A DNA stretch of 35,211 bases from a virus (Duplodnaviria > Caudoviricetes). This document shows positions 19,047 to 29,371 of this stretch, piece after piece. The position numbers and the translations under genes were made by a program. Position 1 is the stretch's first letter. Every line of letters begins with the position of its first letter. Under the pieces are notes generated by a model, which saw nothing but the letters and a program-made list of their open reading frames with translations, was not told the DNA's origin and made no database searches. The stretch spans positions 1-35,211 of IMG/VR virus record IMGVR_UViG_3300032301_000155, one strand, 5' to 3'.

Positions 19047-19246
19047 ACTCTCACCCCGTTGCCTTCCCGTCTTGCGACAAACTTCATCCCTGTTAACTTG
19101 CCAATTCGATAGTTGTTGTTGCACATCAATCTGATCCCAACCCCATCTACAAAAAACGATTCCCCGACTTCCATATTCCTATATGGGTACGAATTTCTCT
19201 TTTTGCTTAGTGGTGGTGGTATTTGTTTATCTATTGCTATACTCAT
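19031..19246 (-). CDS. small putative DNA-binding protein; first gene of the leftward operon
   Basis: YPYRNMEVGESFFV...GVRVWRI, a motif common in small phage proteins; AAGGAG RBS. Confidence 0.7.
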   Translation of the reverse strand: MSIAIDKQIPPPLSKKRNSYPYRNMEVGESFFVDGVGIRLMCNNNYRIGKLTGMKFVARREGNGVRVWRIE

Positions 19247-19270
19247 ATCATCACTCCTTTGTTTAACCTA

Positions 19271-19299
19271 ATCATACACGACATGATACACACATACAA
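19271..19299 (-). promoter_or_regulatory. candidate sigma70 promoter for the leftward (terminase) operon
   Basis: Minus strand TTGTAT-N17-TATGAT, 25 nt upstream of ATG 19246. Confidence 0.5.
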
Positions 19300-20002
19300 C
19301 GAATATCATCTAGGCGATCAACTCATTCATCTTCAGTATTTGAGAAGGGTTTGTCAGGAAAACCCCCACTTAAAGTTCACGCACCATTGCAACCCCCAAT
19401 ACCACGCCCAGCTATTACCCTTGTGTGAGGATATGCCTATTAGCTTGCAGGGGTTAAGTATTCCGAGTACCGCTATTAATTCGTGGATCGGCTATAAGAA
19501 CTTCTTTTACAACCATCAAAAGCGTAGAGATTGGGTGGCTTTCCATCTAGACTGGTTCGCCTACCTCTCAGATCGCTTGGAAGCGCCCAACCCCATAGCA
19601 AGCGCTGATGACTTATTGTTTGATTACCCCGCTTTAAACGCACCTACCAGGTATGAGTTTGACTATTTGCTCATTAATTCTTTGCCAGCATCTAACCAGC
19701 TTCCCACTTATACCCACCAATACTGGCAAAAGAGGGTATTAAATCTCACAAACGAGGGGATAAAAGTCGTAACAACCTACCCTACGGGGATGTGTCCATG
19801 CACTCTAGACCACCATTTCACCGTCACCGACATCGGGGTTCTTTCCAAATGTGTGCAGCACATTGAGGCGGTGGACACAGGACCACTCTGGACAACCTTC
19901 AATATCCACAATAAAAACAAAGTGTTAAGCCGAAAGATTTACGGCACAACCTCTGACACCATAGACCTTGCACCGAACACCATCTGCTTTCAAAATCTAT
20001 AA
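19283..20002 (+). CDS. GT9 (ADP-heptose:LPS heptosyltransferase)-like glycosyltransferase
   Basis: N-terminal HLGD and C-terminal VDTGPLW match the GT9 'xIGD' and 'DSGPMH' motifs. Start moved to ATG 19283 to avoid overlap with the divergent gene. Confidence 0.55.
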   Translation: MIHTYNEYHLGDQLIHLQYLRRVCQENPHLKFTHHCNPQYHAQLLPLCEDMPISLQGLSIPSTAINSWIGYKNFFYNHQKRRDWVAFHLDWFAYLSDRLEAPNPIASADDLLFDYPALNAPTRYEFDYLLINSLPASNQLPTYTHQYWQKRVLNLTNEGIKVVTTYPTGMCPCTLDHHFTVTDIGVLSKCVQHIEAVDTGPLWTTFNIHNKNKVLSRKIYGTTSDTIDLAPNTICFQNL

Positions 20003-20312
20003 AAACTGATTTTTTTTCTGGGGGGAGTCAGTTGGGGTGCACGCACATCAACACCCCATGCCCAAATCAAATAGCCAGATAATCATTATCGAGATAATCG
20101 AGATAATCATTATCCCCTATTATGTACATAATGCAAATATATATATTCTCAGAGAGCGCGTTGTAGGTTATCCCCCATTCATTTATCTAATTACCCCTTA
20201 TGTATATATACCTATTATGTATATCACCTATTAGTCATATAGTCATATATTCATATAAGCATATTATCTATATTTGTATATAGTCTATATCTATATATAG
20301 TGGCTCTGATTA

Positions 20313-20356
20313 TGTTTGTTATCTTGTCTATGTATTTAAGTACAAGATGACAAACA
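20313..20356. repeat. 15-bp inverted repeat
   Basis: TGTTTGTTATCTTGT-N14-ACAAGATGACAAACA (14/15 match; the mismatch is a G-U pair on the + strand). Confidence 0.7.
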
Positions 20357-20480
20357 AGAGCTATGCGCTCACTCTGGTCGCGTCTCTGGACTACTCTCAT
20401 CTACTTGTCATCTATTCATCAATTCATGCGTTACACTATTAGCGGGTACTTTTGCCCGCAATAACCTAATGGAGTAAAAA

Positions 20481-21803
20481 ATGACATTTAACCTAATGAG
20501 AGAAAGACAGCGCGGCACAAGCATAAGTAGTCTGCGCTCTGGTATTCGTCGCAATATGGAAGGTAATTGGCGACAAGGACGCGACGGCAGACTTTTAACA
20601 CTTAACTTGGTCTTAGAGCGTCGGCAGCTGCGCGACAACTTAGCAATCAGTCTAAGACATGCAATCATTCGCGGCGACGACAGCGAGGCTCTGGACGCGC
20701 TCAACAACTTGTCCAGTATTCGCGGCTCTTACACAACTTGGAGCGAATGGCTCGAAGATAAATTCGGCGCTACTTATTTTCAATGCTATGACTGCGACAC
20801 TCTGGACATCTGGGATAACTCTCACAATGTGCGCGACGATTACAGGGTTTGCGATTGTTGTGTCGAAAATTATTACTATAGTGAGCGTAACCAATACTAT
20901 GACGACGACGAGGACGACGAGGACGACGACAGCGGGTATTGCAATATCGGCGGCAGACATTCCAGCAAGCACAAGTTGGGTCATATAGCGTCCAGCTTTG
21001 ACACTCGCAAGCCGCGGGTTTTACTGGGACTTGAGTTAGAGATGGAAATATCTCGCGACATGGACATGGACGACAAAGCGGCAGACTTGCTTAATGCTAT
21101 CGGTCATATTGATGGCTCAAAATATTGCTTAATCGAAGAGGACGGCTCTATCGGTCATGGCTTTGAGATGGTTACGGGCTATACGGGTCTGGACATTCAT
21201 AAGCGACAACTCTCATTCTTTAAAAATCGTTTAGTCGGCGCAAAGTCTCACAACACAACAACATGCGGCTTGCATGTACATGTGTGCAAATCTGATATGA
21301 CTATGCTCCATGCCGCCAAAATGATTTTGTTTATCAATGACGAAAAGAACCATTCACTTATCAAAGCAATAGCGCGGCGCGACTCGTCCAGCTGGGCAAA
21401 AGTACACGACAAGCAGAATGACAAGTATTGGCTACACGACGCGATGAAGTACGACAACAAAGCGGCGAAGTTGCGTCATCTGAATTCAGACAGGTACGAG
21501 GCTTTGAATTTTCAAAATGAAAAGACAGTCGAATTCAGAATTTTTAAGGGCACGCTCAAATATTCGACGATTATGGCTTGCTTAGAATTTACCTATTCGA
21601 CATGGTTTTTTAGTCGCGACACAAGCCAGACGCGCTTAACGACAGACGAATTTTTACAATTTATTTGTTTAGAAAATAATCGCCGCGACACTACTTTTTT
21701 ACGCGCTTATCTACTTGAAAAGGGTTTCGTTTTGCCATTTATTAAAAAGCCGCGACCTGAAGTATTCGGCGGCTCTATCAACTCAACAAGCGAGGAAATT
21801 TAA
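20481..21803 (+). CDS. putative amidoligase (COOH-NH2 ligase superfamily)
   Basis: GLELE, EEDGSI..GFEMVT, TCGLHVHV, RYEALN and TVEFRIFKGT motifs; N-terminal CxxC...CxxC and an acidic linker; GGAG RBS. Confidence 0.88.
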   Translation: MTFNLMRERQRGTSISSLRSGIRRNMEGNWRQGRDGRLLTLNLVLERRQLRDNLAISLRHAIIRGDDSEALDALNNLSSIRGSYTTWSEWLEDKFGATYFQCYDCDTLDIWDNSHNVRDDYRVCDCCVENYYYSERNQYYDDDEDDEDDDSGYCNIGGRHSSKHKLGHIASSFDTRKPRVLLGLELEMEISRDMDMDDKAADLLNAIGHIDGSKYCLIEEDGSIGHGFEMVTGYTGLDIHKRQLSFFKNRLVGAKSHNTTTCGLHVHVCKSDMTMLHAAKMILFINDEKNHSLIKAIARRDSSSWAKVHDKQNDKYWLHDAMKYDNKAAKLRHLNSDRYEALNFQNEKTVEFRIFKGTLKYSTIMACLEFTYSTWFFSRDTSQTRLTTDEFLQFICLENNRRDTTFLRAYLLEKGFVLPFIKKPRPEVFGGSINSTSEEI

Positions 21804-21806
21804 TCC

Positions 21807-22826
21807 ATGTGTCTACTTATCACTCAATCACAACATTCGCCAAAATTGTCGAATGAATGGCTTACCGATTTTTACGAAAGCAATTCAGACGGCGTTGGCG
21901 TTATGACAATCGAAAATAGCCAGCTGGTTATCAATAAAATTTTGCCAAAATCGGCCCATGAATTTATTGATTTTTATCGCTCTAACATTGAAGGCCGCGA
22001 CTGCGCTTATCACTTGCGCATGCGCACACACGGCGCGACAGACCTAGAAAATTGTCACCCCTATGAAGTACTCAACAAAGCCGCGCATGGCATAGATTTA
22101 TGGCTTATGCACAATGGTATTTTGGCGACTGGTAATCAAAAGGACATTTCAAAGTCTGATACATGGCACTACATTCGCGACTACTTGCGTCCTATGCTTG
22201 CCAACAATTCAGACTATGCTTTTACGCAAGGGTTTGCCGACATTATTGGTGAGCATATTGGCGCAAGCAATAAATTCGTCTTAATGGACGGCTCTGGTCG
22301 CGTCGCCGTCGTTAATCGCTCTAGTGGGGTTTATTGGGGTGGCTTATGGCTTAGTAATACTTACGCGTGGAGCGCGTCTAAAAGCGTCTCTAAGACACCA
22401 ATTAAGGGTCTTAAAAAGCAAGCCAAACAAGTCAAAGAAAAGCCAGCGGCTCGCGTCCAGTACGCAAAATATCCGAAGTACTGGGGAAATAAGACGGCGA
22501 TTGGTTACATGGACGGCTATGGCTATGACAATGACGACGACGAAAGCGGCGACTACTGGGACTATTTCGACGACATTGAAATTATGCTTTCAGACATGGC
22601 AGAGAATGGCTATAGCAAAGCCGCAAGCGTCTCGCTTAATACTTGCATGGACTTTGTTAATCAATTCGGTCTGGATGCTTTTAATGAAGTCTCTTACATG
22701 GTTTTGGACGGCAACATTGGCGAGGACTGGTACATCAAAGTAATGACCGACGAAATAGCGGCTCGCGAGGCTTTCCCATTTTTAGGGTCTAGCTACTCTG
22801 GAAAGGGTTACCAATATGCAGAATAA
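21807..22826 (+). CDS. class II (Ntn) glutamine amidotransferase
   Basis: N-terminal Met-Cys, NSDGVG, HLRMRTHG, NCHPY, MHNG, SDT; GAGG RBS. Confidence 0.9.
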   Translation: MCLLITQSQHSPKLSNEWLTDFYESNSDGVGVMTIENSQLVINKILPKSAHEFIDFYRSNIEGRDCAYHLRMRTHGATDLENCHPYEVLNKAAHGIDLWLMHNGILATGNQKDISKSDTWHYIRDYLRPMLANNSDYAFTQGFADIIGEHIGASNKFVLMDGSGRVAVVNRSSGVYWGGLWLSNTYAWSASKSVSKTPIKGLKKQAKQVKEKPAARVQYAKYPKYWGNKTAIGYMDGYGYDNDDDESGDYWDYFDDIEIMLSDMAENGYSKAASVSLNTCMDFVNQFGLDAFNEVSYMVLDGNIGEDWYIKVMTDEIAAREAFPFLGSSYSGKGYQYAE

Positions 22827-22911
22827 GCCAACAAAGGACGACATCATCTGCGCCATTATCTTAATTGTGTTTATCCTGCTACTTGTAAACCTAAAGGACT
22901 GTAAGCTATAG
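22816..22911 (+). CDS. 31-aa single-pass membrane peptide MQNKPTKDDIICAIILIVFILLLVNLKDCKL
   Basis: Overlaps the GATase stop by 11 nt; 15-residue hydrophobic core; ends just before the terminator. Confidence 0.55.
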   Translation: MQNKPTKDDIICAIILIVFILLLVNLKDCKL

Positions 22912-22926
22912 CTTCAGAAGGCTCTT

Positions 22927-22950
22927 AAACCCGCTTAGGCGGGTTTTTTT
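22927..22950 (+). terminator. intrinsic terminator
   Basis: AAACCCGC-TTAG-GCGGGTTT running into a T7 tract. Confidence 0.9.
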
Positions 22951-23029
22951 GTGTCTGGTTATACCCAACTATCAACCACACCAAAAAAATCGCTCTATGG
23001 CTCTCTAATCAATTCTGACAACTTATTCC

Positions 23030-23240
23030 TTTATATACATATATGATATTTAATAAAAATAATAATATATCTATGATATTTAATATATATTATTTAATAT
23101 CTATCCATAATCAATAAATAAAATAGTTAGATATACCATTTATTTAATATCTATTATATTTAATAAATATAATATTTATTATATATTATTTATATTATAT
23201 ATAAATTCAGTTTAAAAATTTTAAATTTTTTTTTTAAATT
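23030..23240. other. extremely AT-rich non-coding tract, candidate replication origin/unwinding element
   Basis: Very few G/C over about 210 bp; internal repeats TATGATATTTAATA x2 and ATTATTTAATATCTAT x2; no ORF. Confidence 0.45.
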
Positions 23241-23246
23241 TGTCAA
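23218..23246 (-). promoter_or_regulatory. near-consensus sigma70 promoter firing leftward into the AT-rich tract
   Basis: Minus strand TTGACA-N17-TAAAAT. Confidence 0.6.
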
Positions 23247-23266
23247 GTGCTTAAATTTTGAGCAGC

Positions 23267-23342
23267 CTGTAGAGACGAAAAATAGAAATTGACGCGGGTT
23301 TTTTAATTTCAAACGGGCTGTAGAGTGCAAAAATAGAAATTG
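23267..23342. repeat. two 25-bp direct repeats (22/25 identical, 51-bp period)
   Basis: CTGTAGAGacgAAAAATAGAAATTG (23267-23291) and CTGTAGAGtgcAAAAATAGAAATTG (23318-23342). Confidence 0.85.
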
Positions 23343-23355
23343 TGTACAAGATGAC

Positions 23356-23383
23356 TTGCACATCTTTTAACATTGTGTATACT
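23356..23383 (+). promoter_or_regulatory. sigma70-like promoter for the recombination operon
   Basis: TTGCAC-N16-TATACT, about 40 nt upstream of ATG 23425. Confidence 0.55.
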
Positions 23384-23424
23384 TGTAATCGTAGTACCCA
23401 ATTAACCTAACCGATGGAGAATTT

Positions 23425-23625
23425 ATGAAAGACCAACACGAAGCCCATTTGCGCGCGGTCCTGCGCAATTTGGTAACCCAATGCCGTATCGAGTTTGATG
23501 GCAAAGATTGTTCACCTGATATGGCTTTTGCATTAAATGATGCAGAAGCTACTCTGGACATTCAAAGACCGTTGTATTCATTTGAAGATCAAGATGATTT
23601 GTCTAACATACCTTTTGGGAGATAA
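23425..23625 (+). CDS. hypothetical protein
   Basis: 66 aa; GGAG RBS; ends in an acidic DDLSNIPF tail similar to SSB C-termini. Confidence 0.75.
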   Translation: MKDQHEAHLRAVLRNLVTQCRIEFDGKDCSPDMAFALNDAEATLDIQRPLYSFEDQDDLSNIPFGR

Positions 23626-23627
23626 GC

Positions 23628-24530
23628 ATGGCTAATGATCGAGGAGATTTTGCGCCCGAAGTACGCAATAGTGCCTGGTGGAGTGGTGACTCTCGCAAGG
23701 TTGCTAATGGTCGTGCGGTAGATGCCATACTGCAAAAACAAGGCAAGATGCCAGCACCTGATTTATCAGGGGTAGAGGCTGTCCAGATGGGTCATGTAAT
23801 GCAACCCCTGATTGGCAGATTGTTTCAAGACAAACACCAGATGGAGTTAAAAGATGCTGACTATAGTATTACTCACCCTCGCCATGATTGGTTTCGTAGC
23901 CATTTTGACTTTATTAGCGCTGATGGCTTATCTCTTGTAGAGGCTAAAAACTATAATGCTGCCACCCGAAACAAGTTTGATAGCGATACCAATCGTATTC
24001 CTGCTGCGGATTATGCCCAGTTGGTTCATGAAGCTGCTTGCCATGGTGTGCAAAAGATTTATCTTGCCGTTTTATTTGGTGGTCAAGAATTTCAGACTTT
24101 TGAGTTTGATATTTCGGAAAGTGAAAAAGATGACCTTATCCAAAAAATGGCAGTATTTTGGGCGCATTGCCAGACTGATACTGTGCCAGCTGCAGAAACC
24201 ATTGAGCAAACTAAGCTCATCTACCCTACAGTAACTGAAGGCTCGGTTATGGCTACGCAGCAGATTGAGTTGGCTGTCTCTCAACTTAAAGATGTTAAGC
24301 ATCAAATTAAGCATCTTGAGAGCCTTGAGGAAACTTTAGAAGTACAGATCAGAAACATTCTAGGAGAGCGTTCTGAGCTGGTGACCTACGCTGGTGAGGT
24401 GTTAGCAACTTGGAAGGCTGCAAAGTCCTCTAAACGCTTTTCAGCCACCCTTTTTCAACAGGCAATGCCCGATATTTATGAGAAGTTTGTAATCGAGCAG
24501 CCAGGTTCTCGGAGGTTCTTAGTCAAATGA
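23628..24530 (+). CDS. YqaJ/lambda-exonuclease family recombination nuclease
   Basis: MGHVMQP, SHFDF...LVEAK...YAQL and LAVLFGG motifs; adjacent to a strand-annealing gene. Confidence 0.88.
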   Translation: MANDRGDFAPEVRNSAWWSGDSRKVANGRAVDAILQKQGKMPAPDLSGVEAVQMGHVMQPLIGRLFQDKHQMELKDADYSITHPRHDWFRSHFDFISADGLSLVEAKNYNAATRNKFDSDTNRIPAADYAQLVHEAACHGVQKIYLAVLFGGQEFQTFEFDISESEKDDLIQKMAVFWAHCQTDTVPAAETIEQTKLIYPTVTEGSVMATQQIELAVSQLKDVKHQIKHLESLEETLEVQIRNILGERSELVTYAGEVLATWKAAKSSKRFSATLFQQAMPDIYEKFVIEQPGSRRFLVK

Positions 24531-24616
24531 ACAACATTGATATAGCAATTTGGGTGATGGCTGCATCTGCGGTCATTGATACAGTTTTAACTTTAGCGGA
24601 GATGATCCATGTCTAA
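24527..24616 (+). CDS. 29-aa hydrophobic peptide MNNIDIAIWVMAASAVIDTVLTLAEMIHV
   Basis: ATGA overlap with the YqaJ stop; GGAGG upstream; fills the gap to the RecT-like gene. Confidence 0.55.
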   Translation: MNNIDIAIWVMAASAVIDTVLTLAEMIHV

Positions 24617-25463
24617 CATTGTTAGCTTTAATGAAATGGACCAAATGGCGGGTGCTATTGCAGCATCAGGTTTATTTGGTATGAAGGACAAGAATAGCGT
24701 TCTTGCTCTGATGGCAGTAGCTCAAGCAGAAGGTTTGCACCCCGCTACGGCTGCCAGAGATTTTCACATTATTCAAGGTCGTCCAGCTCTTAAAGCTGAC
24801 GCGATGCTTGCTCGTTTTCAAAATGCAGGTGGAAAAGTAGATTGGAAGGAATACACAGATGAAAAAGTCACAGGAATATTTAGTCACCCAAATGGTGGAG
24901 AGCTTGCTGTTAGTTGGACGATTGAACAGGCAACTCGTATTGGGCTTGTCAAGCCTGGATCAGGTTGGCAAAGGTTTCCCAGGGCTATGCTACGCTCTCG
25001 TTGCATATCTGAAGGTATTAGATCGGTATTCCCAGGAAGTGTTACAGGATTCTACAGCCCAGAAGAAGTCCAAGACTTTGAACCCGCGCCCAAAGACCTC
25101 GGCAAAGTCCAAGAAGTCTCAGTTGCCCCCGTTTCCATTGAAACCATAGAGGAGGACATTCCCGTTCTAGACAATGGCGAGGTTTCTACTCCTAAAGGTA
25201 ATTTAGGAAAGATGTTAAACAAGTACCCTTTATACATCCCTGGAGCAGATGAGCCTTACGCGGTCTATCTAAATACCGAGGATTGGCAAGAGGGATTTTT
25301 TGAAATATCTAAGAAGATTTACGAATCTTCCAAGTATGACGATAAAACAAAGTTGGAAAAACACAATGCTTTGCGTGATGCAAACGAAGCATTTATGAAG
25401 TCGTGGAATGGCACTCATACTGCCAAATTGTTAGAAAAAATTGCTACTTTAAGGAGAAGATAA
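24609..25463 (+). CDS. RecT/Bet-like single-strand annealing protein
   Basis: FHIIQGRPALKADAM, W..FPRAML.SR..S..IR.VFP and G.YSPEE motifs; paired with the exonuclease. Confidence 0.78.
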   Translation: MSNIVSFNEMDQMAGAIAASGLFGMKDKNSVLALMAVAQAEGLHPATAARDFHIIQGRPALKADAMLARFQNAGGKVDWKEYTDEKVTGIFSHPNGGELAVSWTIEQATRIGLVKPGSGWQRFPRAMLRSRCISEGIRSVFPGSVTGFYSPEEVQDFEPAPKDLGKVQEVSVAPVSIETIEEDIPVLDNGEVSTPKGNLGKMLNKYPLYIPGADEPYAVYLNTEDWQEGFFEISKKIYESSKYDDKTKLEKHNALRDANEAFMKSWNGTHTAKLLEKIATLRRR

Positions 25464-25726
25464 TGGCAACTGGACACATAGACAGAATGGGCAGCGGTGT
25501 GCTTTACACCAACGACAAGCGCACCCACGAAAAAGCACCTCAATTTAAAGGTCATTTAATGATTTCTAGGGATTACAAAGCAGGCGAAAAGATCAAAATT
25601 TCCGCTTGGATGTATAACACTCCTAAAGGTCAGCTGGTGAGCCTTTCAGAAGATACTTGGAGACCAGAAGGCGAGCAACAGTACCCTAAAGAAGTTAACC
25701 GCAGGGATGATGAAGTACCGTTCTGA
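25463..25726 (+). CDS. putative small ssDNA-binding protein (87 aa)
   Basis: Start reassigned to ATG 25463 (TAATG coupling, AGGAG RBS); GVLYTND...PQFKG...SAW motif; acidic DDEVPF tail. Confidence 0.65.
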   Translation: MATGHIDRMGSGVLYTNDKRTHEKAPQFKGHLMISRDYKAGEKIKISAWMYNTPKGQLVSLSEDTWRPEGEQQYPKEVNRRDDEVPF

Positions 25727-26109
25727 TGATTGTTTTAAACCTACCTTACCCACCATCAGTTAATAACTACTGGATTGCTAGTGGGCATCGCAGGTTTATC
25801 AGTAAAAGGGGTGTGGAGTTCAAAAACGCGGTAATGGCGTATTGCATTGAATTTCGCACCCCCAATTTTGGCAATCAAGTGGTTTGGGTAGAAATTGTTT
25901 TACATCCTAGAAATAAGCGTTTACAAGATATTGACAATGTTTTAAAGCCAATTTTGGATTCGCTTATTGGAATTGTGTATGACGATGATGTCCAAGTGCA
26001 AAGTTTACAAATTACTCGCGGTCAAGCAATTAAAAACGGTGGTTGTCGGGTAATGATTGATGTATACCCTCCCAGTTCAGGGGAGAGTTCTCTCACAGAG
26101 AACCGTTAG
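25726..26109 (+). CDS. rusA: RusA-like Holliday junction resolvase
   Basis: LPYPPSVNNYW and DIDNVLKPILDSL...YDDDVQV motifs. Confidence 0.93.
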   Translation: MIVLNLPYPPSVNNYWIASGHRRFISKRGVEFKNAVMAYCIEFRTPNFGNQVVWVEIVLHPRNKRLQDIDNVLKPILDSLIGIVYDDDVQVQSLQITRGQAIKNGGCRVMIDVYPPSSGESSLTENR

Positions 26110-26170
26110 GTGTGATGCGCCAGCCATCTACTGAGCAAGCTGGCACTAATTAATTTAACAGGGGATAAGG

Positions 26171-26341
26171 ATGGTTAACAACGAAACTTGTAAATGCAAA
26201 CCACTTACTACGGATATGATTGCAAGGGTTTTTATTGATCATGTCAACACTTATAAAAATGTTGATGTGGATAGAGACGATTATTTTGATTTTGCAAGAG
26301 CGATTGAAAAAGCAATTAGAGGAGAAAATAATGCCGATTAA
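26171..26341 (+). CDS. 56-aa hypothetical protein (KPLT...FARAIE)
   Basis: AGGGGATAAGG RBS; MVNNETCKCKPLTTDMIARVF...DFARAIEKAIRGENNAD; not in the ORF track. Confidence 0.7.
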   Translation: MVNNETCKCKPLTTDMIARVFIDHVNTYKNVDVDRDDYFDFARAIEKAIRGENNAD

Positions 26342-26474
26342 ATCTGTGTTTTGGCACATCTTACAAAGAGAAATTGCCTATCGTAAGCGTGTCAATAAAG
26401 AACACCGCACCAATATGTTTACCATTCACAAGGTAAAAAAAGACATTGTGGTGGTTAAAGTAACTCCTGTGTAA
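26331..26474 (+). CDS. 47-aa basic hypothetical protein (MPIKSVFWHILQREI...)
   Basis: GAGGAG RBS before ATG 26331; corresponds to the 3' part of track ORF 26220..26474. Confidence 0.6.
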   Translation: MPIKSVFWHILQREIAYRKRVNKEHRTNMFTIHKVKKDIVVVKVTPV

Positions 26475-26926
26475 TGGAAACAGGGATGAACCGCCATAAA
26501 AAATGGCAAATTGCACAAGACTTGTTTAATCAAGAGTTTATGCGCTTGTCTTTGCAGGCCATGTTACATGGAGTTGATGTTGATCCACAAAATGAATTTA
26601 GCATTTGGGATTGGGAATTTAGGGCAGGAAAATATTTATTGGGTCTTGGCGAATACCGCAGGCGCTTTCACCGTTTTGGTCATTTTGATGATTTTCGATT
26701 TAGCAAAAAGAAATTTGACACAATGAAAAAAACAGCTAAAGAATTTAATGTAACGGCAATGATGTTTGTGCAATTTGATGATCAATTTCTGTATTTTACG
26801 ATTGAAGGAAAACCTAATAGTGAAATGATGCGCAGAAACCATGAAATTCGAACTGAAGAATGTGTGTGTATTCCTAAGAATTGGTTTAAAAACATTAACC
26901 ATTTAGAAAAAGAATTAACTTTTTAA
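26474..26926 (+). CDS. PD-(D/E)XK nuclease-like protein
   Basis: FSIWDW...GEYRRR resembles a D...ExK/R core; MFVQFDD strand. Confidence 0.5.
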   Translation: METGMNRHKKWQIAQDLFNQEFMRLSLQAMLHGVDVDPQNEFSIWDWEFRAGKYLLGLGEYRRRFHRFGHFDDFRFSKKKFDTMKKTAKEFNVTAMMFVQFDDQFLYFTIEGKPNSEMMRRNHEIRTEECVCIPKNWFKNINHLEKELTF

Positions 26927-26958
26927 CAAAACAAACAAATTCATTTTGAAAGAAAATT

Positions 26959-27729
26959 ATGCCAAATAAAAAAGAAGCAGTACCAGAACAACCTAAACTT
27001 TTTATTGCCACCCCTATGTATGGGGGTATGTGCGCTGGATACTATACCCAGTCGGTATTGCAGTTAAACAATGTTTTTTCTAGTCGTGGAATTGGCGCTC
27101 AGTACAGCTTTATGTTTAATGAGAGTTTAATTACCAGGGCTAGGAACGCTTTAACCCATACTTTTTTGCAAGGCGATTGCACTCACTTGATGTTTATTGA
27201 TGCTGATATTCGGTTTAACCCAGAAGATATAGTCAGGATGATAGAAGCAGATAAAGACATTATTTGTGGCATTTACCCCAAAAAAGAAATTAATTGGAAT
27301 ACGGTTAAACAAGCAATAGATCGACAAACGCCTGTAGATCAGCTTAAACACCACACAGGCAGCTTTGTAGTGAACTTAGTAGGTTATGCAGGGGAAGTAA
27401 CTGTGCCTGTCAATGAGCCTGTTGAGATCTTTAATGGCGGTACAGGATTTATGCTGATTAAACGAAAAGTATTTACTAAGCTATCTAAAAAAGTACCTGA
27501 GTACACTAACGATGTGGGTGATCTATCAGGTCAACTTAAAAACCAAGCCAAGATTAAAGAGTTTTTTGCTACTTCGATTGAACCAGACACCAATCGCTTG
27601 TTATCTGAGGATTATCATTTTTGCCGTATTTGGCGAATGGCAGGTGGCAAGGTTTACGCAGCGCCCTGGGCGCATTTAGGTCACATGGGTAGTTATATTT
27701 TTGAGGGTGGGTTAACACCAGCGCCATGA
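26959..27729 (+). CDS. GT-A fold glycosyltransferase-like protein
   Basis: LFIATPMYGG, ESLITRARN, LMFIDADI (DxD), GTGFMLIKR and LSEDYHFC motifs. Confidence 0.82.
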   Translation: MPNKKEAVPEQPKLFIATPMYGGMCAGYYTQSVLQLNNVFSSRGIGAQYSFMFNESLITRARNALTHTFLQGDCTHLMFIDADIRFNPEDIVRMIEADKDIICGIYPKKEINWNTVKQAIDRQTPVDQLKHHTGSFVVNLVGYAGEVTVPVNEPVEIFNGGTGFMLIKRKVFTKLSKKVPEYTNDVGDLSGQLKNQAKIKEFFATSIEPDTNRLLSEDYHFCRIWRMAGGKVYAAPWAHLGHMGSYIFEGGLTPAP

Positions 27730-28448
27730 AATATAAAATAAACAACCTCACAATCGAGATGACCGATGGTCATACTCTGCCCTACTATCAGCAGCAGCAT
27801 AAGCTCTATGACCGCTTTTTACCCCACCTTGCCAAGTCTTTGAAAGGTGATGTAATTGATGTCGGTGCTAATGTCGGTGCAACGATGGCAGCGATGGCAC
27901 AAGCTAATCCTAAACTCAACTTCTTTTGCGCTGAACCGCAGGCTAATGTTTATGATGCGTTGCAACAAAATGCAAAATTGGTGGAGAAAAAGCTCAAAAC
28001 TAAAGTTCGCATTATGAAAAACACTATCGGTACAGTTGGCGTTCCTCTGCAAGCCGTCATAGAAGAATTTGGTTATAAGCCTGATTTAATCAAAGTGGAT
28101 GTGGATGGCATGGACTACGATGTGCTGAACTCGTACAAGTTTGAACAGCAGCCTATGATTTATTTTGAGGCTGATTACCAAACTGAAACACAGCTAGAGT
28201 TGTTTAAAAAGTTGATCTATGACTTGACCATCAAGGGTTACAGCAAGTTTTTCTTGTTTGATAATTTTGGTGCTTTTATGGGTGGAGTTGAGCATGACCA
28301 GACCGATCACATTGATAACCTATTTGATTACATCTGGACACTCAAACAAAGGCGCAGCACGATGACTATTTATTATCTAGACATTTTGGCGGTAACACCC
28401 AAAGATGCGCTGCGAGCTGCTAGATCAGTTAATGAGTATGCTTCATAA
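27726..28448 (+). CDS. FkbM-family SAM-dependent methyltransferase
   Basis: VIDVGANVG, CAEP and LIKVDVDGMD motifs; ATGA-coupled to the glycosyltransferase. Confidence 0.85.
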   Translation: MKYKINNLTIEMTDGHTLPYYQQQHKLYDRFLPHLAKSLKGDVIDVGANVGATMAAMAQANPKLNFFCAEPQANVYDALQQNAKLVEKKLKTKVRIMKNTIGTVGVPLQAVIEEFGYKPDLIKVDVDGMDYDVLNSYKFEQQPMIYFEADYQTETQLELFKKLIYDLTIKGYSKFFLFDNFGAFMGGVEHDQTDHIDNLFDYIWTLKQRRSTMTIYYLDILAVTPKDALRAARSVNEYAS

Positions 28449-28455
28449 TGCGTTT

Positions 28456-28560
28456 GACGGCAGTTAAGCCGACACTCAAGGATGTCATGTGTATATTTTT
28501 TCGGCTTTCCTATACACATATACATTGAAATGTATATAAAACGACCAAATTGATGCCGTT
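28456..28560 (-). ncRNA. candidate structured RNA with a pseudoknot
   Basis: Nested stems ACGGCA/UGCCGU, UCAA/UUGA, GUCGU/AUGAC, UAUACAU/AUGUAUA and UGUGUAUA/UAUACACA. The last loop contains AAGCCGA, complementary to downstream UCGGCUU. Confidence 0.55.
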
Positions 28561-28723
28561 ACCGCTTGCTTTTTCTGCGTGTTTTTTTTGCCGTCTTTGC
28601 CGACTGTCTAAATGCTGATGCGGTTGGAGCGCCCTTTGATCCAGGCTTTCTCATTTTCTCGCCTGAGCCTTTGCGGATACGCTCTCTCTTTTTATGGATA
28701 TTGGCATAAAGTCCAGGTTTCAT
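28559..28723 (-). CDS. 54-aa highly basic protein (MKPGLYANIHKKRERIRKGSGEKMRKPGSKGAPT...)
   Basis: ATGA overlap with the upstream gene; Lys/Arg-rich; absent from the ORF track (54 aa). Confidence 0.8.
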   Translation of the reverse strand: MKPGLYANIHKKRERIRKGSGEKMRKPGSKGAPTASAFRQSAKTAKKTRRKSKR

Positions 28724-28944
28724 CTACACCCCCATCTCTTTCTGGCAGCTTTGCCTCGTTCACCCTTCCAACTTTTGGATCTGGCACAAAATGACTTATG
28801 CCGAGGTCCTGATTTTGTTGGTGCTTTTAATTTGCTTCCTGTTGCTCGGTTGTATTTCTTTCTTCCTTTGGCTGTTAATCCACCGCCTTGGCTTACTGAG
28901 AGCTTTTCTCCACGACCTACGGAAAGATTGGTACTCTTAGGCAT
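28720..28944 (-). CDS. 74-aa highly basic protein (GGLTAKGRKKYN...SFCAR...ARKRWGC)
   Basis: Start reassigned to MPKST after an AAGGA RBS; motif typical of small basic phage proteins. Confidence 0.75.
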   Translation of the reverse strand: MPKSTNLSVGRGEKLSVSQGGGLTAKGRKKYNRATGSKLKAPTKSGPRHKSFCARSKSWKGERGKAARKRWGCR

Positions 28945-29371
28945 AAGGTCTAGTTCCTTGTTTATCAATGATTAGAGTTTGTTTTCTTGGCTTTAGATCA
29001 TTATGACTTGGTACTGAGATATGTGTCCAGCGATCAAATTCTCTAATCACTTGGTCAAAATCAAGCTCTGAAGCCATCACAGCTTTAACTACCTCATCAG
29101 GTGTCATGCCAGGCACACGAATGTCAGCAGCGCACCCTATACGGTGCTGGCTAGTGTCTTTAGAACCTACGGCATCATTGACTTGTTTAGATCGAAAAGC
29201 AGAGTTAACCATAATTGGTCTGCCTTCTAATACGGTTTTAACTTCCTCTAAAAACAAGGCAAGGCGTTGTAAGTTAGATAACTCAGCATCATTAGGGGTA
29301 TTGTCAAACTCCCGATGATCGGTGTGAGTTAATTCCTCTAGCGTGAAATGCTCACTTAGATTTGTTGGCAT
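28937..29371 (-). CDS. peptidase M15A-family endolysin
   Basis: LSEHFTLEEL, NSAFRS..VN.AVG, SQHRIGCAADI and WTHIS zinc ligands; start MPTNL after an AGGA RBS. Confidence 0.9.
   Translation of the reverse strand: MPTNLSEHFTLEELTHTDHREFDNTPNDAELSNLQRLALFLEEVKTVLEGRPIMVNSAFRSKQVNDAVGSKDTSQHRIGCAADIRVPGMTPDEVVKAVMASELDFDQVIREFDRWTHISVPSHNDLKPRKQTLIIDKQGTRPYA

Follow-up and report, generated by a model that had tools for sequence, protein, structure and literature searches.

The question raised by this locus is what kind of element occupies the short gap in which two convergent gene blocks of a phage genome meet, and from which strand it acts. The window (the whole stretch of DNA analysed, 35,211 bp) is a complete phage record with direct terminal repeats. 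Virion and terminase genes fill its left part on the minus strand, a plus-strand block (19223–28448) holds RecE-like, RecT-like, SSB, RusA, glycosyltransferase-like, and methyltransferase-like genes, and a second minus-strand block, running in from the right side, ends in the endolysin and two short basic proteins. The element is the gap where the plus-strand block and the second minus-strand block converge, with 110 bp between the convergent stops (28449–28558), and its flanking genes are as follows:

27726..28448, plus strand: methyltransferase-like gene (phrog_8156, E 2e-5, a weak match)
28559..28723, minus strand: convergent gene for a 54-residue basic protein (phrog_16028)

The former is the last gene of the plus-strand operon, its stop codon lying 8 nt before P1, the terminal helix of the element; the latter closes the minus-strand block holding the endolysin, and its stop codon is overlapped by P1 by one base. 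Scanning of the window region around the gap for promoters and terminators gave chance-level matches only, and an intrinsic terminator, that is, a GC hairpin with an immediate U-tract, was found on neither strand of the gap. The 54-residue protein gene was considered as a fixed partner of the RNA and rejected: among 80 loci carrying homologues of this gene, the RNA was seen in just two (L010 and L046, in opposite orientations), and an nhmmer search of the 80 loci with the window RNA found none. As for other genes of these blocks, 28559–28723 and 28720–28968 (minus strand) encode two short, very basic proteins (phrog_16028 and phrog_10346) at the end of the lysis block, the phrog_16028-type gene having about 16,000 pattern-matching stretches in IMG/VR with highly diverse neighbours, and an amidoligase-like gene (20481–21803, plus strand; phrog_2443, E 3e-13) stands at the start of the plus-strand block.

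The original prediction had read the gap as a pseudoknotted non-coding RNA. Indeed, every helix that it named is present in the sequence, as is the perfect 7-nt loop complement, given below in plus-strand coordinates. R1 and R2 denote models built from 27 At1-type (type A) sequences only and from phage-type (type B) sequences, respectively, with rough E-values, and the outer ends of the element were deduced from P1 and from the mapped ends of the Agrobacterium RNAs At1 and Ti2.

28455..28563, plus strand: Atu_At1/Ti2-like pseudoknotted ncRNA, phage type B (R1, 33.9 bits, E 4e-8; R2, 65.7 bits)
28457–28462/28554–28559, plus strand: P1, terminal helix joining both ends (sequence; 5 of 5 pairs with double-sided changes in the family)
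28463..28475, plus strand: J1/2, 13-nt junction with a conserved GU-Y-A head, containing the pseudoknot 5′ strand (28466–28472)
28466–28472/28501–28507, plus strand: pseudoknot formed by the 7-nt complement (sequence and covariation)
28476–28479/28550–28553, plus strand: P2 (3 of 4 pairs covary in the family)
28480..28483, with 28546–28549 as the 3′ side, plus strand: purine-rich 4 × 4 internal loop, 5′ side GGAU (sequence)
28484–28488/28541–28545, plus strand: P3 (4 of 4 pairs covary in the family)
28489..28517, plus strand: hairpin P4 (stem 28489–28495/28511–28517), whose U-rich 15-nt loop holds the pseudoknot 3′ strand
28518..28537, plus strand: hairpin P5, optional, AU-rich (stem 28518–28525/28530–28537; sequence)
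28560..28563, plus strand: 3′ tail with ACC, one base past P1, also antisense of the last codons of the convergent gene

The element is single-copy in the phage genome. P3 of the window contains one A·C mismatch on the plus strand, which reads G·U on the minus strand, and the position of P5 is taken by a GC hairpin in At1-type members and by 2–10 unpaired nucleotides in most phage members. The 5′ side of the internal loop was fixed by the search patterns described below, and its invariance is not an independent result. Taken as a single sequence, the element folds modestly better than chance: positions 28456–28560 gave a z-score of −3.15 on the minus strand, with 1 of 200 shuffles equally good, and positions 28450–28565 gave −2.21 (minus) and −2.56 (plus); a loop-to-loop complement of at least 7 nt arose in 58 of 20,000 shuffles. 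Since the best ViennaRNA fold differs from the proposed structure on both strands, the fold rests on covariation.

A pattern with fixed pseudoknot strands cannot test covariation, and positions were therefore freed in turn. The first pattern, with both pseudoknot strands fixed, matched at least 120 IMG/VR loci (about 260 estimated), nearly all with a spacing of 46–50 nt and visibly homologous. A non-G first base in the central four pairs gave 107 loci, freeing of all four central pairs gave at least 120 loci in GTDB genomes (about 350 estimated), and forcing the last or the second pair off A-U gave at least 120 (about 1,200 estimated) and 65 loci, respectively. Family membership was scored from P1–P4 only. 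In the first three scans, 276 of 342 parsed matches passed (193 distinct), and the central pairs of those 193 were Watson-Crick at all four positions in 178, at three in 12, and at fewer in 3. The last-pair scan yielded 117 parsed loci of 120, of which 116 passed (108 distinct), and all 65 loci of the second-pair scan passed (43 distinct). In these two scans, with one strand forced off A and the other off U, the pair was Watson-Crick in 103 of 108 and 43 of 43 sequences, the remaining five being G·U on the plus strand. The 3 sequences with fewer than three such central pairs (L323, L386, and L416) were judged by eye to be chance matches from unrelated AT-rich genomes and were excluded.

Covariation of the 7-nt pairing in homologues, which the original prediction had named as a check, was borne out by compensatory changes: of the 341 kept sequences, 339 form every one of the six parsed pseudoknot pairs (339 of 344 when the three excluded are counted), in 69 variants, although about 90 of the 341 came from the first pattern and pair by construction. 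Double-sided changes occur in 6 of the 7 pseudoknot pairs. For 70 phage-type sequences, in an alignment fitted to the nested helices and not to the pseudoknot, the covariation score was 0.723 against 0.194 for shuffled sequences; none of 500 shuffles was as high, and slid registers reached at most 0.113. The 27 At1-type sequences gave 0.588 against 0.187. Judging from these comparisons, the pseudoknot is real and covaries strongly, and the element is a conserved pseudoknotted non-coding one rather than a simple terminator. The family core can be as short as 74 nt (L219, L224), and the family is estimated at 1,500 or more IMG/VR stretches, a redundant count that is not one of genomes; members also occur in Rhizobiales, Sphingomonas, Rhodobacterales, and freshwater Betaproteobacteria. 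Three queries of the GenBank phage collection returned chance matches only, that is, no cultured phage carrier at that sensitivity.

The Rfam scan likewise proposed for the window gave nothing at gathering thresholds (best chance match, mir-466, E 8.5), and the window copy lies below the gathering score of Atu_At1 (RF02496; 60 bits), with no match even at E up to 10. Other phage-type members score 27–35 bits with the Rfam Atu_At1 model. Of the family loci compared with Rfam, one of the first 20 exceeded the RF02496 threshold, on the strand opposite to that originally assigned, as did five of the second 20, two of them phage; At1-type copies in phages reached 63.4 (L160), 62.7 (L304), and 87.3 bits (L307). 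The two models matched reciprocally. Thus, R1 found the window copy at 28454–28562 (plus strand; 33.9 bits, E 4e-8, the next match having 10.4 bits) and 24 of 24 type B loci (E <0.003), against at most 18.2 bits on 17 chance loci sharing the anchor pattern, and R2 gave 30.5 bits on At1, against up to 21.2 bits on chance loci. Type A (At1-like, with a conserved P5) is found in Rhizobiales, Sphingomonas, Devosia, Rhodobacterales, and some phages, with 202 matching plasmid records, and type B, that of the window, in phages and six contigs of freshwater Betaproteobacteria. The window copy shares with Atu_At1 the nesting of P1–P4 and the order and spacing of the conserved single-strand blocks, but has a 4-bp P2, an unrelated AU-rich hairpin where At1 has its conserved P5 loop and the junction after it, and a location after a stop codon rather than a promoter. 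On sequence comparison, then, the element is homologous to Atu_At1 as a divergent phage subtype, and is not a member by Rfam's own rule; its description as an unclassified motif is not supported, since the reciprocal models tie it to Atu_At1 even though it falls below the Rfam threshold.

Atu_At1 is the Agrobacterium sRNA At1 of pAtC58 (PMC3384568). In the accessible text of that paper, At1 (55274–55161) and Ti2 (173670–173783) were each detected by dRNA-seq and Northern blotting as RNAs of 113–115 nt, At1 peaks at high cell density, and Ti2 is the most abundant Ti-plasmid transcript (1,772 reads), its deletion leaving tumour formation unchanged. A second RNA-seq study, as far as its accessible part goes, read Ti2 as part of a 207-nt 5′ UTR (PMC3738593), and Ti2 is plant-signal-induced through VirA/VirG (PMC3384568, PMC3738593). 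We found that Ti2 of pTiC58 is also a family member (Rfam, 80.5 bits; R1, 74.2 bits); it spans 113 nt, ends at P1, carries an ACCC tail, and, in contrast to the window copy, is the 5′ leader of the atu6155-virK operon under VirG. Neither a link to At1 nor a pseudoknot was found in the accessible parts of the two Ti2 papers (PMC3384568, PMC3738593). The Rfam consensus structure has no pseudoknot and draws a local hairpin over its 5′ strand; this hairpin can form in 276 of the 341 sequences and breaks in the other 65 without compensatory change. Ti2 lies at 1171–1284 of locus L430 (pTiC58 173670–173783), so that strain C58 has two paralogues under different regulators.

The original prediction placed the RNA on the minus strand, which is probably wrong: the plus strand is very probably the one transcribed. 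With G·U and A·C parsed alike, wobbles ran 74:25 for the plus strand in the 133 phage clusters (p 9e-7) and 36:7 in the 38 bacterial clusters, and all 28 pseudoknot wobbles among the 341 kept sequences are G·U on the plus-equivalent strand. Moreover, the mapped At1 and Ti2 RNAs each cover the whole motif, with P1 at both ends, and come from the strand that corresponds to the plus strand of the window. The sequence GGAAC-N18/19-TT, given as the RpoE2 general-stress promoter consensus in the accessible part of PMC3738161, lies upstream of 35 of 60 alphaproteobacterial copies on the plus-equivalent strand and of none of the 60 on the other side; in At1, such a promoter stands 11 nt before the mapped 5′ end. 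U-tracts after P1 (33 vs 9 of 133 phage clusters) and ACC within 2 nt of P1 (29 vs 3) likewise distinguish the plus- from the minus-equivalent strand.

Function of the minus strand instead of the plus strand in phages, or of both strands, or of the element as single-stranded DNA, is very unlikely. In its favour, the helices consist mostly of Watson-Crick pairs, which either strand can form, the type A P5 loop reads UNCG on the minus strand, the sole in-helix wobble of the window, in P3, is G·U there, and the excess for plus in the first phage set, taken by itself, was no more than 15:13 after clustering; in addition, a minus-equivalent stop adjoins 61 of 259 phage copies, and in L203, L210, L211, and L274 it is the minus-equivalent strand that has the direction of the tRNAs. 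Against these points stand the 28 of 28 pseudoknot wobbles, promoters, U-tracts, ACC tails, and At1 and Ti2 themselves, all in favour of the plus strand. Because the family evidence favours this strand, the element ends the plus-strand replication/recombination operon instead of the late operon, at the 3′ end of which it had originally been placed. In the four tRNA-linked copies (1465–1556 in L203, L211, and L274; 1493–1597 in L210), the RNA lies between tRNA-Gln and tRNA-Arg of a tRNA cluster or 13 nt away from tRNA-Ser; with the plus-equivalent strand as the transcript, it would point against the tRNAs.

No recurring partner gene was found among the 65 phage and 118 bacterial neighbour proteins scanned, the 65 having been picked from 149 to cut redundancy and the ORF calls being heuristic and noisy in GC-rich DNA; the neighbours include endolysins, HNH nucleases, exonucleases, polymerases, capsid genes, ligD, DUF892, and the virK operon. 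A same-strand stop lies within about 14 nt before the RNA in 119 of the 259 distinct phage copies, 61 copies abut an opposite-strand stop, and in 34 both apply, the RNA lying between tight convergent stops. Such positions would suit the main rival to the trans-acting RNA preferred below, a portable nuclease-resistant knot acting in cis, which would protect the 3′ ends of phage operons in place of a terminator and the 5′ ends of bacterial stress transcripts, would with P1 and a U-tract also terminate transcription in some, and would leave the 113-nt species as decay leftovers. A separate downstream terminator is indeed rare (12 of 270 copies), U-tracts directly follow P1 in the 33 phage clusters mentioned, and in bacteria the element forms the 5′ leader of stress-type genes, among them ligD, the virK operon, and DUF892; the reading of Ti2 as part of a 5′ UTR (PMC3738593) also supports such a role. 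We nevertheless regard a protective role of this kind as doubtful: on neither flank of about 10 copies was a same-strand gene found, a U-tract directly after P1 is absent from the window and present in 1 of 38 bacterial clusters, and a cap would need no more than a simple hairpin, yet the family conserves about 15 unpaired positions and its helix spacing all the way from Rhizobiales to freshwater phages (in part fixed by the patterns).

The gene-free copies, some of them inside tRNA clusters, each have TAAATA a few nucleotides before P1. A reading of this hexamer as a T4-type late promoter is doubtful: it was enriched in the first set (29 vs 7 of 122) but not in the later sets (8 vs 12 and 4 vs 5), one carrier is a complete 33-kb genome, and its genome-wide counts were not clearly above the reversed control. 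A Gp23 search matched neither the TAAATA carriers nor the controls and is uninformative. HNH/homing endonuclease genes flank the phage copies in L094, L100, L149, L224, and L099 and are a possible route of spread.

The reading that we prefer, at a probability of roughly 0.45, is that the element yields a stable, processed RNA whose fold engages a host protein or small molecule in trans. Established for the phage copy are its fold (P1–P4 with a 7-bp pseudoknot between loop and junction), its relationship by homology to At1 and Ti2, the absence of any fixed neighbour, and its place 8 nt past the plus-strand stop, whereas discrete 113-nt RNAs from this strand with ends at P1 are published for the relatives At1 and Ti2 only (PMC3384568, accessible text). 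The trans reading is favoured because these relatives are discrete under different promoters, the element is mobile among genes and orientations, and some copies stand alone. Furthermore, the letters of the pseudoknot vary freely, whereas conservation is seen in its geometry, in the U-rich flanks, and in the purine-rich loop; the search patterns themselves imposed much of the apparent invariance, although two relaxed scans still retrieved almost only true members. The fold would therefore be recognised as a shape, and paired letters that vary so freely speak against an antisense role of the P4 loop. The trans reading is weakened by the lack of an effect of Ti2 deletion on tumours and the reading of Ti2 as a 5′ UTR, both taken from the accessible parts of the papers (PMC3384568, PMC3738593), by the attachment of most phage copies to an mRNA end, which fits a cis role equally well, by the occurrence of the ACC tail in a minority of clusters, and by the shortness of P1.

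Presumably, the RNA would be made as the tail of the replication-gene operon by read-through on the plus strand, released at its 5′ end by RNase P at P1, and trimmed at its 3′ end to P1 plus the ACC tail, with termination at the U-tract setting the 3′ end in other phages. The product would be a stable RNA of about 105 nt, in which a fold-back of P4 may bring its U-rich loop up against the purine-rich internal loop, and which is predicted to bind a conserved host protein or small molecule through its fold, possibly as a decoy or sponge. It is conceivable, if somewhat doubtful, that the family is an overlooked, widespread class of compact RNA with tertiary structure, a host stress RNA captured many times by freshwater phages as an RNA-only decoy or sponge for the same target and thus common to host stress response and phage takeover, or else a new catalytic RNA; on this tentative scheme, alphaproteobacteria would switch the RNA on in general stress and Agrobacterium under VirG, and the target might be a host protein or a signalling nucleotide.

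As for the proposed release, a terminal stem with 3′ RCC(A) is an RNase P determinant, and pre-4.5S RNA is a substrate, according to the accessible text of PMC11143913. ACC is present just after P1 in the window, and the bias seen in phage clusters contrasts with 4 of 38 vs 2 of 38 in bacterial ones; the ACC-containing tail at 28560–28563 is a possible processing signal. P1 averages about 7 bp in the family, compared with the 12-bp ruler in tRNA. Among non-tRNA RNAs of bacteria and phages, the C4 RNA of phages P1/P7 is processed by RNase P, and 4.5S RNA has a 3′ tail. Paired ends and an RCC-like tail are shared with these RNAs by a minority of family members, but sequence or Rfam similarity is lacking, and the analogy is one for release and not for function.

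Bacterial copies are often 5′ leaders, of ligD, DUF892, pyridoxamine-oxidase-like, and PRC-barrel genes, which we take to be general-stress genes, with Ku divergent in one case. A riboswitch or attenuator sensing a ligand or protein in stress operons, carried by phages as a passenger or sponge, would account for the placement directly behind RpoE2-type or VirG promoters and for the Shine-Dalgarno sequence and start codon that follow, in the same orientation, 16 of 63 bacterial copies (against 1 when the opposite strand is read) and 30 of 259 phage copies (against 3); premature termination was raised by the authors on Ti2 (PMC3384568, accessible text), and a short hairpin competing with the pseudoknot is possible in 276 of 341 sequences. 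Such a sensing leader is unlikely, in that this hairpin is broken in 65 of 341 without compensatory change, most phage copies are at 3′ ends, the downstream genes have no common pathway, and no terminator or Shine-Dalgarno sequence overlaps the fold; the arrangement expected of a riboswitch, 5′ of the genes of one pathway with an expression platform, was thus not found. A type B copy on a Zwartia contig (L352, 2605–3087) lies 22 nt before a pyridoxamine-oxidase-like gene, and the same gene family follows a type A copy in Shinella (L340).

Among the three functions originally suggested, ribozyme, nuclease-blocking element, and protein-binding RNA, the ribozyme is the least likely. A new self-cleaving class cutting phage and bacterial transcripts would fit the small size (core down to 74 nt), the pseudoknot, the conserved unpaired bases, and the range of phage settings, close to lysis genes, HNH genes, or tRNAs, and the fold recalls the twister layout, in which the terminal loop pairs with an internal-loop strand. 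Twister, pistol, hammerhead, and HDV-like ribozymes are likewise small pseudoknotted RNAs in phage intergenic gaps, but no known core motif is shared: the hammerhead CUGANGA core is absent from both strands of the window, which has no Rfam match, and for twister, pistol, and HDV-like ribozymes neither the Rfam models (window and 60 family loci) nor crude core patterns matched. This upholds the earlier observation of no hammerhead, twister, or pistol match and adds HDV. The length of P1 varies and its ends are poor active-site candidates, and the relatives At1 and Ti2 are full length in vivo (113–115 nt by Northern blotting and dRNA-seq; PMC3384568, accessible text), which makes constitutive internal cleavage unlikely. 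Self-cleavage is accordingly quite improbable.

The trans-acting RNA that we prefer may be compared with ToxI of type III toxin–antitoxin systems and its phage mimics, pseudoknotted RNAs that work by protein binding. Only this proposed binding mode is shared, however, since the present element has no tandem repeat, a different topology, and no Rfam match, and no adjacent toxin gene occurred among the 183 neighbour proteins scanned. Readings as an integron attC site or an ENE-like element were dropped, as family variants break the consensus.

Literature searches, including the accessible parts of PMC5737381, PMC10085705, PMC10690425, and bioRxiv 10.64898/2026.09.22.753630, yielded no account of the pseudoknot or the phage copies, nor of the stress promoter or the At1–Ti2 link, although the supplements of PMC10690425 and PMC5737381 may list the motif. 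PMC10690425 reports, in its accessible text, 10,006 viral RNA candidates; six of its supplementary files had no match, and three others of that set may hold the motif. Within these searches, the pseudoknot and the phage subtype appear to be new; the Atu_At1 family and the At1 and Ti2 RNAs were already known. What was catalogued as a Rhizobiales sRNA without a function, and with a structure omitting the pseudoknot, is now a broad family, in which a strongly covarying tertiary contact and conserved unpaired bases give the profile of RNAs with a biochemical job. The very abundant Ti2 is tied to At1, and in a strain that has both, each paralogue could hide the loss of the other, so that the absent Ti2 phenotype would be explained; since C58, a standard laboratory strain, has both copies, it is directly testable what this RNA, common in uncultured lake phages, does.

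In 46 phage loci, a variable hairpin element of 40–170 nt lies between the upstream same-strand stop and the pseudoknotted RNA, typically with a G-rich/C-rich closing stem and ACC at its end (for example, L216 384–481, minus; L446 454–519, minus; L432 334–396, plus; in tandem in L434, L445, L467, and L469). A comparison of 20 of these loci with Rfam gave no convincing match, and an HDV-like reading made by eye was discarded, as no such Rfam match occurred among the 20. This hairpin is possibly a second unclassified phage RNA with the same release route. Finally, two Rhizobiales isolates each carry two copies of the pseudoknotted RNA on separate contigs (L370 and L372; L369 and L413).
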